A DNA stretch of 64,000 nucleotides, from assembly GCF_963676685.1 (NCBI RefSeq), contig NC_092351.1:54622001-54686000 (forward strand), written 5' to 3'. Source of the DNA: Mytilus edulis. Lineage: Eukaryota. The stretch's first letter is position 1, and each line of letters begins with the position of its first letter. Positions 12,001-42,263 of this stretch are shown piece after piece. The position numbers are program-made.

Positions 12001-15000
12001 ACTGCTAGGGTAAAGATAAATTGCTTCATTAATAAAACTAGTAATGTTGCTAATTCTTTATTTTTATTCGATGATAAGTCTCATTAAATATTCAATAATG
12101 AATTTGTATAAATAAACATCTGGTTGACCCCTTAGATTTATTATTCTTTGTGATTTTCAAAAGTCTCTATTTCGTGACTGACATACGATACAGTTTCTTT
12201 GTGTTGATAAGATGCTTCATACATGTGAAACTATATTACATTGTATTCCGCTGTATACTTCTTTTCGTTGATTTCGGTGTAACAACAGAAACGCAAATTC
12301 AAATATCTAAGGAACGACATATTCTCAAAGAAGTTACACATCAACAAATTGCAAGTTTTTTTGAATCCATAAAGTTGATACCTACGAAAATGAATAAATA
12401 CACTGTATTAGAGGCAATGCGTGCTGGAACAACAGTCTTTTTGAATTTCATTTTGCTTCCAAACTTTAAATTTGGGGCTTTTCACAGTCGGAAAGCTGAC
12501 CCCGGTTTGACCCCATTTCTTAAAGCAACAATGGACGTCATGTGATTACAATATATTGGCATTTTTTTACCAAAAAAAGTGAAGCCCGTTTTTTGAAATT
12601 TGTAGTATTTTGCATGAATTTAAACAAATTTCCTATTTAGTGAACATTCTTGAGTATATAAGACATATATTACTCAACTCAATTATGGATTAAACTAATT
12701 TTTTTCTCTCAAAATGTGTCTAAAGTCAAGGTGTTGACGAAAAAAATTGGTCACAGAAAATTAAAACCGTAATTTTCTTTCTTAACATCTCGGGAAGCTA
12801 TGCTGAATTTAAATTATGTTAAGTAACAAAACTTGGACTTTGATATGTCAAATGTGTGCCACTTGATACGCTAAGATACGCGTATGTGCCACTTCGGTGT
12901 GTCGATATTTCTGACGAAGCGAGTCCGATGGTAATTCACGAGTTACGTCCCTTTGTTTGACATTATCATGAACAAACTATTATTATATCAAGCACCATAT
13001 GCTGTTATTTACATGTGGATATTATTAAATAAAGGCAACAGTAGTATACCGCTATTCAAAACTCATAAACTCATGGAAAAAAAAACAAAATCGGGGTAAT
13101 AAACTAAAACTGAGGGAAACGCATTAAATATAAAATAATCTTATTAAATATATTCTGATACTGTAAACATGTGCCAAAAAATTTAGAGAAACACATTTTA
13201 TCACTTTTCAGAACTCAGTCCCAGTAAAATAATATTATAAGGATAATAATTTAATATTAATTTAATATTCCAAGAGTTAATTTAATATTTATGTTTTGGT
13301 AAGTATTTTTACTGCTGTAACCAAATTATTTTAACACAGAAATAAATTTCTACTCAATTAATACAAGGGGTAATAGCATTCATGAATAATGGACCAAGAC
13401 AGGATTAAAATAATAAAAAAACAGGAGTTCCTTTTCATTACTGATACCTGTCCTACCTTTTTCATTTAAACCTAAAAGAGATCATAATGAAAGTATTCTG
13501 AATGTAAAATCTTCATTATTTTAATTTAAAAAAAAATAGTTTGCAATCCTTGTATGAACAAATTATAACAATAAAAGTTGTCTCATTGTCATTAATTTCA
13601 TGCAAGTTAGTTCTAATGAATGAACTGAAGTTATAAAAAACCCACACTAAACCAATAAATGAATGGTGCTAATCATGAACTTGAAAATAAATAAGAACAA
13701 AAAGACTCAGTAATATTTTTCTTCTTCTATTTGAAAAAACTATGCATTTTTATATTTATATAAAAGTATTTCAGAGCAGTTTCTGGGGGGGATAAGTCAA
13801 CAATTATGTTGTAGATCACAAGTCAAAATTAAGTCACACTTCATGTCAGTATGATCATGCTTTGAATACGATTGATTAAAATGCTACTGTTAAAGAGATT
13901 GATTTAAGGCAGCAACCATTTGATTTTCGGGGAGGGGGAGGGGGTGGGGGTATTGATTTTTTTTCAGACATACTTTTTTTTTCGTTGGCGAAATACAATC
14001 AATTTTTGAACAATCCTTCTCTTTCAATTTTAGCATTAGATTTAATGGCAGCTTAAGGTAAAACAAACATTGTTTTTTCTCAGGGTCAAAAACAAATTAC
14101 TTTTTTTATCCAAAAATAGCCCGATCAACATGATCAACGACGTTACGTAATTGTTAAAAGAAGGCCAATTTAACATGTTTAAGTATTATTTTCTTTAATA
14201 AGAAGAAACATGATCATCCATGCTTTAAAAAACCAAAGGAAATCTATTTCTGACCTTAATGGCAATTTACAAACAGACAAAAGAAAAAATTCCAAATTGG
14301 CGACAAATTATTTTTTCCGCGAAATTAACGCAATTTCAGAATGGCAGGTTTTAATATCAGTCTCATTGTTGTCTTAAGAAAGTAGCAACAACAGTCGTTT
14401 CTCAGAGCTTGCTTTCCGACTGTTTAAAAGGTTTAACAAAAAACCAGTTACCTCAATGCGAGTTTTAGATTATGAACGCACTTTTGTATTCATGATGTAC
14501 CACTATTATCTATTCTGTAATAATGTCCAGTTGGGACATCTGGCTCGCGCATAAATAAATTTCTACAAAAGGTTCCAACTACATCTATCAATGAAGTTCT
14601 TCGATAAGTTAATAGGGTCATTTTTCTAAAACTAAAACAAATAAAAACATTTAAAAAAATAAATGACATACATAATTAGTGATATGATACATAAACAAAC
14701 ATTTGTAGAACATAGTGCATTTCATAATTTCTCACAAATAAATGATTCTGCTTTTGAACATGTGAAATCATTCCATGCGTAGTCAACTGATCTACGCATC
14801 TGTACACAATCCTCCGAGTTGTATTTATTGTTAGGTTCTCCACGTGACCACGCTGTATAGGTAAGGCCTGAATTGTCGAGGTCCCAAACAAAATTGTATT
14901 CTCGATTAATATCGTTGGCTCCAATCCAAACTGCCGGACTGTTTGTGTCTGAAATGAAACAAAGATCATTCTCAAATATAAGGATAGCCAATAAGGTAAC

Positions 15001-18000
15001 AATTTAATGATTAACTTTGTATAGTTTCTCATTAATAGTTGTAATGAATTAACTTTGAATTCCTTTTTTAAATCATTTGCTGATATCAAGATGTTTTTAT
15101 GTTTCTTGCAGTCATGCAGTATATTTTTCACTGCCATTTTTATGTTTATAGCAGACCAAATATTTAAGAAATCTTCTTTGAATTGCGTGAAAACGAAAGT
15201 TTACGGAATGTTTTTGCAAAATTTTGAAAAAAAATAGGAAATATGTTTATACTTTTGGTTCTTAAATTAAAATGTGTATAGAGGTGATCCGCTTTAAGGC
15301 GTTAGGAGAGACGGAAAATATCAAAAGGGTTATCAAACATATAAATTGAAAATAGACTGAATGCAATTTTCAAAAGTACATCGATAGTTCATAGAACAAA
15401 TTGAAATATTTTCATTCTTAAGGAGCGAATAACAGTATACCCTTTTTGATTTTGTTTACATCTCAAAACCTAGCGTCCTTGAACAGAGTGGTTTTCCACA
15501 GTATAATAAAACCACTCCACACACAGTGGTAGTGTTCGGAGTATAAAACATTTATATGATTTGCAGATAGATTGTTGTAAATTTATTCATCTTTAAGAGT
15601 AATGGTTTACATCCTTGATGTTACATAATCTGTGTTTTGGAATTAAGTATAAATTACAAAAATAGAGACAGTGTTCGTACAAGTATTAACCGATGCATTA
15701 ATGGTACTCACGACTTTTACAAGTATTGGTCCAAGGACACAGTTATCGTCCTTTGGTTTTCGAATATAGTCACTAGTGTGAACAGTGAATAACTTGGATT
15801 TTAATTTGATACACGTTCCCAATTTATTTCTTGATATTTAATGCATGAAATATTAACATGATTAAGTAGAGGATCAAATTACATGTTAAAATAATTTGGA
15901 AGCTGAGTTAAAAAAAAATCGGTGCTGAATCGTTATGTTAAGTAGAGATTTGGTTCAGTTCTAAAAGGTCAAATTTTCATGATAACGCCTGAAGCTGTCA
16001 AACTAAATTTTAGACCCCTTAATTAACACAGAATTGTCAATATATTAAAAGCGGGTAGAAGTTTCTATAATTTAGAAATTATTTGTCCCACTAGTAGTAA
16101 ACTAAACTGTAAAAAGCGTTTTGAGATAGAGCATGTGCGATTTTTTTTATTTGAATTTATTGTCTTAAAGAAATGCACTACGAAATAACTGTGTTCTCGG
16201 GCCTATTAACTGATGTATGTATGGTACTCACTACTTTTCACAAAAGATTTCAAGAACCAATTTTCAACCGCATCGTCAACTTTTACAAGGAATCCTCCTT
16301 TTCTACGACAGTCATCCTAAAATTCAAAATACAACATGAACAGTTTGATTACAAGAGCTTCCAACATTGTTAAAATAACTGATTACAATTGTTTTAGTCA
16401 AATCATGGTGATGTATCAACTTATAATTTAGTTTTGGTTACTACGAAACATATCTTACTTTTTTCTTTTTCACAATAAGCATGATAACATAATTTTACTT
16501 ATAAGAATAATAAGTTAGCTGATATAACTCCTTATTATAATCAGATTAACAAATTTGTGTTGCTTCTTTAGAATGATTTGAAAAATTCCTGATTTTATAT
16601 GTAGAGCTTTATTCGAATGATTCTCGTAAGTTTCATATTGCACTATGTTGAATTTTCTTGATGTTATTGTGGGCATTGTTGTTAATCTGCTTTTTCCTTC
16701 ACTAGGTAATTCTTCTCTTTTTTATTGTCTTTTCAATCGCCACTAAAACCAAAATCCGTACTTAACAATTTTGATTGGTGTCGTGTTTTAAATATTCAAC
16801 CACCCATATTTAAAACTTAACTGTTTACAAAACTTTTGAACTTTTGAAATTCTAAGGCTTTTCTACCTCATGAATATATTACCTTAGCCGTTTTTGGCAA
16901 AACTTTTAGGAATTTTTGTCCTCAATTCTCTTTGTACTTTATTTGGCCTTTATAACTTGCGCGTCTGTCGTAAATATGAAATTTAATCCCGGTTATCTAT
17001 GATACGTTTATTCATAATCTAATTTTTCTATTTTGATGATTTGCTATATTTAGATTTTGAAAGACTGTGTGGGTCCATACATAATATCACCCGCCATGCC
17101 AATTTAAACATAGCCAACATTTCTTAATCGAGATTAGAACAGTTGTTAAAATTACAGATTTAACAACTATGATATTGTAAGTAAGTTGAGAAACCGAATT
17201 CTACGAAAATGAGATGATTTTAGCTCTCCAATTGTGAACTTTCCATATCTAAGTAACAACATTCCCGCAGCACCTGCTTACGGGGTATACCTCTCCCAAT
17301 TAATACGATATTCTCGTGCATGCATTTTCTATGATTTTCTTGATAGAGGGTTGCTGCTAAAAAAAAATTATTAAACCAACAGTTTCAAATGGTGAAGTTG
17401 AAATCATCCCTTTGTACATTTAACGGACGCCATCACGAGTTGGTTGACTGTTATGGAATAACTGTTTCACAAATGATATCGAATATGCTCCTCATGTCGT
17501 AACTACAATACCCTTCCCTTTCGTGAATGTGACATACCGAATTAGACTATTTACCGGATTTGTTATAACATGAGCAACACGACGGGTTCTACATGTAGAG
17601 CAGGATATGCTTACCATTCTGGAGCACCTGAGATCACATCTAGTTTTTGGTGGGGTTCGTGTTGCTTATTATGTAGTTTCTATGTTGTGTCATGTGTACT
17701 ATTGTTGTCCTTTTCATTTTTAACCATGGCGTTGTCAGATTATTTTCGATTTATGAGTTTGACTGTCCCTCTGGTATCTTTCGTCCCTCTTCTACTACCG
17801 ATCAACAGATTCGTGATAGTGACCATATATAATAACAGTTATGAAAGGTTAGATTTTAACCCTCTTCCTTATACTCTGTTTTACGAGAACCTAGCCATAG
17901 TTCAACGTTTTACGATAAAAGCAGCCACATACTTTGATAGAGTTTAATTGGATATAGGAAGATGTGGTATGAGTACCAATGAGACAACTCTCCTTCCAAA

Positions 18001-42000: not shown

Positions 42001-42263
42001 CATTTAGTTTCGTTATTAATGGTATGTCAATTGCTGTTTCACAGTTGTCATGTCCACAAGTATTCGAACACACGTTTTCAATAATAAAGAGAGTGAAAAG
42101 AACGATTGCAGATACTCGCAACATTCTGATTTTTTTGGTTAAAATAAAGCTGTGTGTTAAGAAGATCCCGGTTTTATATCTCAAATCCGTTAATTTTTTT
42201 CTGATAATATAACACATGTCGAGAGGGTCTGGATGGTAAGTAGGAAAGTCTACATTTCTGCAT

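Follow-up and report, generated by a model that had tools for sequence, protein, structure and literature searches.

The window analysed here, a 64-kb stretch of the Mytilus edulis genome, carries an intact gene of seven exons on the minus strand (14722-42124; Table 1). Its coding sequence sums to 1044 nt, or 347 codons plus a stop. All six introns have GT-AG ends, a pyrimidine-rich tract lies ahead of every acceptor, and the exon border phases are 1, 1, 1, 1, 0 and 1, with exons 2, 3 and 4 symmetric (1-1). The seven exon translations are exact substrings, in order, of the RefSeq protein P0002 (347 aa, "collectin-11-like isoform X1 [Mytilus edulis]"), with exactly one residue between the pieces for each split codon; exon 1 matches P0002 residues 1-108 at 100%. 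These results bear out two proposals of a preliminary description of this DNA, namely that seven phase-compatible exons are joined here and that the gene is molluscan. As that description also noted, an ORF track misses four of the seven exons, since only exons 1, 2 and 7 have their frames in the default ORF list. The gene itself is already known: the identical seven-exon model is annotated in RefSeq as collectin-11-like. A second RefSeq isoform, X2 (P0001), differs from X1 by exon 3 only, and skipping this exon reduces the collagen part from 16 to 7 triplets. Both isoforms are automated gene models.

Table 1. Exons of the M. edulis gene and features of its first intron (positions in the window).
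Feature	Position	Strand	Description
Exon 1	42124-41800	-	325 nt; ATG at 42124, GT donor; ends in phase 1
Exon 2	28664-28509	-	156 nt; phase 1-1; AG/GT; 51 whole codons; second part of helical stalk
Exon 3	26986-26894	-	93 nt; phase 1-1; collagen, 9 Gly-X-Y triplets
Exon 4	19802-19740	-	63 nt; phase 1-1; collagen, split Gly codon plus 6 triplets
Exon 5	18469-18375	-	95 nt; phase 1-0; 5 post-collagen residues, then start of C-type lectin domain (CTLD) with extra long-form Cys pair
Exon 6	16316-16232	-	85 nt; phase 0-1; middle of CTLD
Exon 7	14948-14722	-	227 nt including TGA (14724-14722); phase 1 to stop; C-terminal half of CTLD
Exon 7 motifs	14722-14948	-	WIG, EPN, Glu before third Cys, WND, three Cys
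Intron 1	28665-41799	-	13135 nt as assembled; includes N gap, two 2.65-kb copies and retroelement debris
N gap	37895-37994		between the two 2.65-kb copies
2.65-kb copy	35242-37894
2.65-kb copy	37995-40634
Integrase C-terminal domain	34323-34727		in intron 1

The gene spans an assembly gap, and continuity across this gap had been raised as the first thing to check. The gap lies wholly within intron 1, 3.8 kb from exon 1 and 9.2 kb from exon 2, and touches no exon. Frame continuity across it is therefore immaterial to the gene model. It is placed exactly between two copies of one stretch, which align at 99.2% identity over 2657 columns, free of mismatches but with 15 gap openings.

Exons 3 and 4 together encode 16 uninterrupted Gly-X-Y triplets, one of which has its Gly codon split over the exon border. 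Both this count and the shortage of proline agree with the preliminary description: the 47 in-frame collagen residues include 2 Pro, 6 Lys, 4 Arg and 5 Glu. Judged from this composition, the stability of a triple helix is uncertain because there are only two Pro. The Pfam Collagen model reached E=1.8e-5 on exon 3 alone (24.8 bits, under the 27.2 cut-off), exon 4 alone had no Pfam match, and PF01391 is precomputed for P0002. All six Lys occupy the Y position and no triplet reads Gly-Lys-X; the collagen motif through which MBL and ficolins bind MASPs, as defined in an excerpt of PMC2856262, is absent from the 16-triplet stretch.

Between the final triplet and the first Cys of the CTLD there are only five residues. 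This domain has the long form: of its six Cys, exon 5 supplies two, which are the extra N-terminal pair, exon 6 one and exon 7 three. It also contains WIG, EPN and WND. Searched exon by exon, Pfam Lectin_C (PF00059) was matched by exon 6 (E=0.021) and exon 7 (E=5e-12), while exon 5 alone gave no Pfam match. In a PDB comparison EPN, the Glu after it and WND were spaced as in CTLDs of the mannose receptor family. Exon 7 matched the mannose receptor, CD23, collectin-11 (E=9e-13), MBP (1.5e-10) and CL-P1 (E=5e-8), and the PDB ranking places collectins no nearer to the CTLD than the domains of the mannose receptor, mosquito GCTL-1 or CD23. Calcium site 2 is defined by EPN/QPD and WND, and in molluscs the EPN motif is not always predictive of binding specificity (both from a portion of PMC5877582).

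The N-terminal part is encoded by exons 1 and 2, neither of which matched a Pfam family when searched singly. Exon 1 encodes a predicted signal peptide (approximately residues 1-20), a conserved C-x4-C and, at residues 31-61, a box that hardly varies. AlphaFold2 models residues 50-107 as one long helix (pLDDT 84-95). The box, common to a family of mussel proteins, reads AIDIPLITKLNAPLKAELDIS. The order first proposed, in which a signal peptide and a helical region are followed by 16 collagen triplets and directly by a long-form EPN/WND CTLD, thus holds. Two details of the N-terminus had to be amended. The CxxxCxxxxC reported there is literally present, yet only its C-x4-C is conserved: across the 35 rows of a family alignment the first Cys of C-x3-C-x4-C is kept in 10, and the other two in 34 and 35. 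Cleavage of the signal peptide probably removes the first Cys. Likewise, there is a helical region ahead of the collagen, where a coiled coil had been described, but the part in exon 1 does not qualify as a canonical coiled coil because its hydrophobic period is about 3.8 residues (close to 3.85), against 3.5 in ordinary coiled coils. The heptad signal was absent, with 1977 of 2000 shuffles scoring equally well.

Of 212 candidates in a protein search with exon 1, 43 matched at E<=0.01, and every one of the 43 is from Mytilus. They comprise the gene's own two isoforms, 26 proteins with Pfam C1q, two with Fibrinogen_C and 13 for which no domain is precomputed. In a 38-row tree of the leaders, that of exon 1 falls in an 11-row clade (support 97/95) with the C1q proteins P0003 and P0040. 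The nearest row is P0003 from M. galloprovincialis, with 82% identity over 88 tree columns and 83% over the whole of exon 1. Exon 2 matches the stalk of P0006, a member of the same clade (54% identity over 51 aa, E=5e-14), and that of P0028, which has a fibrinogen head (40% identity). By these similarities, exons 1 and 2 belong to a mussel family of secreted C1q-domain ("C1q-like type II") proteins. Proteins such as P0003 have the signal peptide, C-x4-C, conserved box and helical stalk in common with this gene, but they end in a globular C1q head where this gene has collagen and a CTLD. C1q heads form trimers. Bivalve C1q proteins oligomerise mostly through a coiled-coil tail, and collagen tails are rare among them, according to part of PMC6835236.

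Exons 3 to 7 have other relatives. These were found in shallow word-index searches, which gave 7 matches from 15 candidates and 7 from 14. The closest CTLDs found are those of P0045 ("collectin-10-like", M. trossulus; 81% identity to exon 7), P0198 (M. coruscus; 62%) and P0197 (M. edulis; 58%); exon 5 is 74% identical to P0197 residues 97-127. P0045 combines collagen with a CTLD and has homologues of both collagen exons, but its N-terminus resembles a type II cytoplasmic tail, in place of the C1q-type leader of this gene. P0197 and P0198 consist of a cytoplasmic tail, a membrane segment, a few interrupted and degenerate triplets and a CTLD; the present gene differs in its 16 uninterrupted triplets and in having a leader and no anchor. 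A junction of the form Lys-Pro/Ser-Leu-x-Cys after collagen-like triplets is common to this gene and all three. P0044 ("collectin-12-like", M. trossulus) has a membrane segment, a long collagen and an EPN-type CTLD that is 62% identical to exon 7, and its residues 536-563 are 79% identical to exon 6. On sequence similarity, then, exons 3 to 7 stand nearest to type II membrane proteins of mussels that carry collagen and a lectin domain.

The two halves of the gene have different sets of relatives, and it would therefore be a lineage-specific mosaic, a convergent analogue of the collectins and not a collectin orthologue; this reading is partly supported. Independent assembly had been suggested before, and the relatives favour it: exons 1 and 2 are 83% identical to a C1q protein and nested in the C1q family tree, and the CTLD is nearest to mussel type II proteins in which collagen-like sequence already adjoins the CTLD. 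The phase-1 borders fit exon shuffling, as proposed, exons 2, 3 and 4 being symmetric. We consider it probable that the M. edulis locus is intact, that it encodes a secreted and oligomeric C-type lectin with a collagen part, and that it originated among mussels in this way. Exons 1 and 2, which encode the N-terminal 160 residues with the signal peptide, C-x4-C, box and a helical stalk of approximately 110 residues, would derive from the secreted C1q-like type II family, and exons 3 to 7, with a short collagen joined directly to a long-form CTLD, from the type II membrane collagen-lectin receptors. The secreted leader would have replaced the membrane anchor of the receptor ancestor.

Different parentage of the two halves would also be expected of an annotation chimera or a decaying locus, in which exons 1 and 2 are the remnant of a C1q gene that lost its head, exons 3 to 7 that of a type II receptor that lost its anchor, and no functional protein is made. 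A 13-kb intron full of repeats, together with the assembly gap, separates the halves from the start of the gene. The leader has an end branch of 0.18 in the 38-row tree, against 0.02-0.09 for its neighbours, which could reflect relaxed constraint. The combination of leader and CTLD was not found in another Mytilus species among the 43, 7 and 7 matches of the shallow word-index searches (212, 15 and 14 candidates). We nevertheless regard this alternative as unlikely. None of the seven exons is broken, their splice sites are canonical and their phases match, and where the two halves meet, just 1522 nt of intron lie between exon 2 (stalk) and exon 3 (collagen). RefSeq isoforms that differ by one exon, as X1 and X2 do, normally reflect transcript evidence. 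Nor did the window hold a leftover of either parent. When four C1q-bearing relatives and one fibrinogen-bearing relative were searched against the 64 kb by tblastn, only exon 1 was found (with P0003, also part of exon 2), no C1q or fibrinogen head exon was found, nor did any exon match a tail or membrane anchor from P0044, P0197 or P0198.

If the locus is the mosaic gene that we favour, the protein would lose its signal peptide by cleavage near residue 20, and its stalk and 16 triplets would assemble the chains, most likely three, with the two conserved N-terminal cysteines linking chains or trimers. A real secreted protein might instead be built differently: the Pro-poor triplets would form no stable triple helix and serve as a flexible spacer, and the non-heptad stalk would set the number of chains, possibly two or four. 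The scarcity of Pro, the 7 triplets retained in isoform X2, the degenerate, interrupted triplets of P0197 and P0198 and the stalk period all lean towards such a spacer. However, the 16 triplets of X1 run without interruption and contain several Lys-Gly-Glu/Asp pairs, which stabilise triple helices in which hydroxyproline is lacking, and the same stalk family carries C1q heads, which are trimeric. The spacer is thus improbable in our judgement.

In the favoured trimeric arrangement the clustered CTLD heads would bind sugars of the mannose/GlcNAc type through the EPN/WND calcium site, and the protein may serve in pattern recognition as a soluble lectin or as an opsonin. The role of an MBL analogue, put forward in the preliminary description together with the trimeric state, is likewise our inference. 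A role outside immunity, such as in shell matrix, byssus or mucus, as for some mollusc CTLD proteins, is brought to mind by perlucin and by the C-type lectins on record in shell and adhesive proteomes, but it is very unlikely given that the complete calcium/sugar site is retained and that both parent families are described, in excerpts of PMC6835236 and PMC10140915, as immune recognition families in bivalves.

A wider reading can be offered as speculation, and we hold it to be doubtful. The mussel N-terminal module, comprising the C-x4-C, the conserved box and the non-heptad helix, might be a universal stalk for assembly and effector docking that serves three unrelated heads: globular C1q, fibrinogen-like, and collagen with a C-type lectin. 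This gene would then encode a convergent collectin that feeds the same downstream pathway as the C1q-domain proteins, whether a proto-complement or a haemocyte receptor, by way of the stalk and not of a MASP-type motif.

Since the gene is already in RefSeq, the value of the present analysis lies in the reading and not in discovery. A mussel would have reached the collectin layout on its own, by attaching the collagen and lectin domain of a membrane receptor family to the oligomerising tail of its expanded C1q family. Such a case would be a clear and datable example of exon shuffling giving rise to a soluble pattern-recognition molecule, and would provide a natural experiment on whether a collectin needs its collagen, its neck or its MASP motif in order to function. 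Collagen-bearing mannose-binding lectins have so far been traced back only to urochordates, and mollusc "MBL-like" proteins are described as having no collagen, both according to part of PMC11312191. A genome-wide survey of bivalve C-type lectins mentions neither collagen, collectin nor coiled coil in its main text (PMC10140915).

The vertebrate soluble collectins (MBL, collectin-11/CL-K1, SP-A and SP-D) resemble the mussel protein in secretion, which is predicted here, in N-terminal cysteines, in a Gly-X-Y stretch and in a C-terminal EPN/WND CTLD. Sixteen triplets are comparable in length to the collagen of MBL and ficolins. The soluble collectins differ in having a helical neck between collagen and CTLD, whereas the mussel protein has its helix N-terminal to the collagen and this helical region is homologous to the tails of mussel C1q proteins. 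Complement-activating collectins and ficolins have, in addition, the MASP-binding collagen motif that the mussel protein lacks. The order of helical region, collagen and CTLD, with the collagen adjoining the CTLD, is instead that of CL-P1/COLEC12 and of mussel P0044. Those two proteins possess a cytoplasmic tail and a membrane anchor, and the collagen in the first half of P0044 is much longer, whereas the protein described here has a short collagen and is predicted to begin with a cleavable signal peptide.

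Seven coding exons on the minus strand, summing to 1044 nt, encode the protein. Each of the six introns has GT-AG ends and a pyrimidine-rich acceptor, and the exon borders have phases 1, 1, 1, 1, 0 and 1. This gene model is already known and stands in RefSeq under automated names. Two annotated isoforms matched exon 1 with 100% identity, P0002 ("collectin-11-like isoform X1 [Mytilus edulis]", 347 aa) and P0001 ("hepatic lectin-like isoform X2", 316 aa). P0002 contains every exon translation as an exact substring in the correct order, with one residue between pieces for each split codon, and exon 3 is the sole piece missing from P0001. 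The collagen region comprises 16 uninterrupted triplets, nine from exon 3, one formed across the split Gly codon and six from exon 4, and its 47 in-frame residues include 2 Pro, 6 Lys, 4 Arg and 5 Glu. The protein's C-type lectin domain (CTLD) carries six cysteines, WIG, EPN, a Glu preceding the third Cys, and WND. The preliminary description of seven phase-compatible exons, 16 triplets and a long-form CTLD with EPN and WND was thus accurate. It was also right that the ORF track misses four of the seven exons; the default ORF list shows exons 1, 2 and 7 only. Exons from the window were searched against databases one at a time, never as the joined protein. Pfam Collagen was detected on exon 3 (E=1.8e-5, below cut-off if the exon is scored alone) and Lectin_C on exon 6 (E=0.021) and exon 7 (E=5e-12), while exons 1, 2, 4 and 5 individually gave no Pfam match.

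Coordinates of the gene and of other features in the window
Feature	Position	Strand	Detail
Exon 1, leader/stalk	42124-41800	-	
Nearly invariant block in exon 1	42032-41942	-	residues 31-61
Stalk helix region in exon 1	41800-41977	-	residues 50-108
Exon 2, leader/stalk	28664-28509	-	
Exon 3, collagen	26986-26894	-	
Exon 4, collagen	19802-19740	-	
Exon 5, CTLD	18469-18375	-	
Exon 6, CTLD	16316-16232	-	
Exon 7, CTLD	14948-14722	-	
Gap flank	35242-37894		2653 bases
Assembly gap (N run)	37895-37994		
Gap flank	37995-40634		2640 bases
Retroelement debris, integrase C-terminal domain	34323-34727	-	Pfam E=8e-13
Retroelement debris	23438-24851	-	
Retroelement debris	29567-30421	-	
Interspersed repeat copy	13880-14096		just downstream of last exon
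Interspersed repeat copy	31238-31680		inside intron 1
582-aa open frame	57318-59066	+	weak C2H2 zinc-finger matches alone (E=3e-5, below cut-off)

The assembly gap, which is the sole N run in the window, was checked first. Its place is in intron 1, where 3.8 kb separate it from exon 1 and 9.2 kb from exon 2. No exon touches it and the public protein has no residue unaccounted for; therefore the seven-exon model is unaffected, and the gap bears on nothing but how long intron 1 appears to be (13135 nt). The two gap flanks are copies of one sequence, aligning over 2657 columns at 99.2% identity with 0 mismatches and 15 gap openings, and they stop and start exactly at the gap edges. From this pattern, two contig ends that overlap seem to have been set in tandem, and intron 1 may therefore be approximately 2.75 kb shorter than assembled. 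Alternatively, the flanks may represent a genuine tandem duplication.

The introns also contain retroelement debris. Two adjoining open frames within it have a YLDD-type reverse-transcriptase-like motif and no Pfam match, and a 284-aa open frame likewise has none. Pfam searches of ten long intronic and flanking ORFs yielded the integrase fragment and weak zinc-finger matches, and nothing else. The 582-aa frame could be a gene or a transposon protein outside the locus under study. Translations of the two interspersed repeat copies, on opposite strands, have a Gly/Pro-run motif in common.

With exon 1 as query for relatives of the N-terminal half, 43 of 212 candidates passed E≤0.01, and all 43 belong to five Mytilus species. 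Besides the gene's own two isoforms, 26 of these have a Pfam C1q domain, 2 have a fibrinogen C-terminal domain and 13 are without a precomputed domain, several of the last bearing the name C1q domain-containing. Exon 1 was aligned with 37 of the 41 non-self matches (P0019, P0020, P0021 and P0023, further isoforms of the P0018 gene, were omitted). Residues 31-61 are nearly invariant in this alignment, in which overall identity to the window's exon 1 is just 48-83%. This block of about 30 residues, after C-x4-C, is conserved across proteins with three different heads. A C-x3-C-x4-C motif had been proposed for the leader, and its last two cysteines are indeed conserved (34/35 and 35/35 rows), but the first is kept in only 10/35. 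The first Cys is probably removed together with the signal peptide, because, directly before the conserved Cys pair, the consensus of the family has a small residue at -1 and Val at -3.

When residues 21-108 were placed in a maximum-likelihood tree (all 38 rows kept, midpoint root only), the window's leader fell in an 11-row clade (support 97/95) that includes the C1q proteins P0003 and P0040, and the two fibrinogen-head proteins formed their own clade (100/99). Exon 2 best matched the stalk segment of P0006, a mussel relative of the leader (54% over 51 aa, E=5e-14), followed by P0010, P0013 and P0027. These matches are stalk segments after the leader, in proteins from the window leader's clade. 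The fibrinogen-head protein P0028 matched exon 2 with 40% identity (E=2e-8) in one comparison and with 39% over 44 aa in another. Exon 1 had no usable match in the ESM Atlas. When the window was searched with relatives for C1q, fibrinogen and tail or membrane-anchor exons, none was found at E<1 except a chance-level match inside exon 2. In the part of the bivalve literature consulted, the leader-and-stalk architecture of these relatives goes by the name 'sC1q-like type II', a secreted form whose coiled-coil tail is regarded as the driver of oligomerisation, and collagen tails are given as very rare among bivalves (PMC6835236).

The preliminary description had placed a coiled coil N-terminal to the collagen. 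This did not hold for the exon 1 helix: a canonical heptad coiled coil over residues 50-108 was rejected, as 1977 of 2000 shuffles equalled it. A Fourier scan of hydrophobicity instead gave a peak at 3.80 residues that was reached by 1 of 2000 shuffles, and a hydrophobic period of 3.80-3.95 was present in 37/37 of the family rows that have 50 or more residues there (of 38 rows). Given exon 1 and the alignment of its family, AlphaFold2 (mean pLDDT 76.5) predicted a single helix at residues 50-107 (pLDDT 84-95), with lower confidence before residue 50. The heptad tendency of exon 2 is weak (equalled by 170/2000 shuffles; Fourier peak equalled by 592/2000). As modelled, the exon 1 stalk is a conserved, strongly amphipathic helix and no ordinary left-handed heptad coiled coil. 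Since its period is 3.8-3.95 and not 3.5, the 'coiled-coil tail' of the family may be misjudged by standard coiled-coil predictors. A predicted complex of three copies of exon 1 residues 21-108, run without the family alignment, had a score of 0.07 and a mark of 0.32, which counts neither for nor against binding.

For the C-terminal half, 7 of the 15 candidates in the exon 7 search passed E≤0.001: the two own isoforms, the M. trossulus proteins P0045 ('collectin-10-like', 81% to exon 7) and P0044 ('collectin-12-like', 62%), and three mannose-receptor-like proteins from oysters and a snail. When the collagen-CTLD part of P0045 served as query, 7 of 14 candidates reached E≤1e-10, among them two further proteins, P0197 (M. 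edulis, 229 aa) and P0198 (M. coruscus, 224 aa). Reading these two directly shows first a cytoplasmic tail, then a hydrophobic segment, a few Gly-X-Y triplets with interruptions, and last the CTLD. Both collagen exons have homologues in P0045, where they are repeated. The P0045 N-terminus was considered as an exon 2 homologue because of a likeness by eye, but BLASTP gave no alignment; it aligns with the P0198 cytoplasmic tail instead (E=1e-6). P0044 (636 aa) has two hydrophobic, anchor-like segments; the first precedes a long collagen and a QPD-type CTLD, the second an EPN-type CTLD. The annotator may have merged two neighbouring type II genes in this model, a hint that such genes could form a tandem cluster. 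In all four proteins collagen-like sequence passes straight into the CTLD, and the 'no neck' layout of the window protein would therefore be inherited from that family.

Read most economically, these sequences make the gene a mosaic of the mussel lineage. The leader and stalk of a C1q-family protein, with a phase-1 end and a 1-1 exon, would have been placed before collagen exons of the 1-1 type and a CTLD block starting in phase 1, and this placement would have converted a membrane-type collagen-lectin into a secreted one. The gene may also show presence/absence variation. As for direction, we infer from an unrooted tree that the leader was taken from the C1q family, because one CTLD-bearing leader is nested among many C1q-bearing ones. 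Trimerisation is suggested by the Gly-X-Y run and by use of the same stalk with C1q heads. The EPN and WND motifs make the protein a putative calcium-dependent mannose/GlcNAc-type pattern-recognition lectin; the consulted part of PMC5877582 gives these motifs as the basis for such binding, and notes that in molluscs the motif is not always matched by the specificity.

We found no description of a mollusc protein with collagen and a CTLD, nor of one stalk common to C1q, fibrinogen and CTLD heads, in the literature searched (main texts, few subscription journals), so that descriptions may exist. The main text of a bivalve C-type lectin survey lacks the words 'collagen', 'collectin' and 'coiled' (PMC10140915). 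From the portions consulted, collagen-bearing MBL has been traced to urochordates only, with mollusc MBL-like proteins lacking collagen (PMC11312191); secretory C-type lectins may in general terms bear coiled-coil or collagen repeats (PMC8878817); and Pinna 'collectin-like' annotations are merely counted (PMC13093298).

Among solved structures, 117 distinct chains matched exon 7 at E≤0.001, with multi-domain mannose receptors at the top. Single-domain structures followed in the order mosquito GCTL-1 (3.3e-13), CD23 (4.1e-13), collectin-11 (9.1e-13) and CEL-I (7.2e-12), with MBP (1.5e-10), CL-P1 (5e-8) and SP-D (2.4e-7) at lower ranks. Because this ranking mixes mannose receptors, GCTL-1, CD23 and collectins, the exon 7 CTLD appears to have no special affinity to collectins. 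An HMMER scan with exon 7 returned 10125 proteins at E≤0.001, of which the best 150 are mainly unnamed multi-CTLD proteins that did not reveal the nearest architectures. The MASP-binding collagen motif of MBL and ficolins (PMC2856262) is absent from the window protein's collagen, since all six collagen Lys residues are in the Y position. Furthermore, in contrast to vertebrate soluble collectins, the window protein is without a neck, its collagen lying directly before the CTLD as in the mussel type II relatives.
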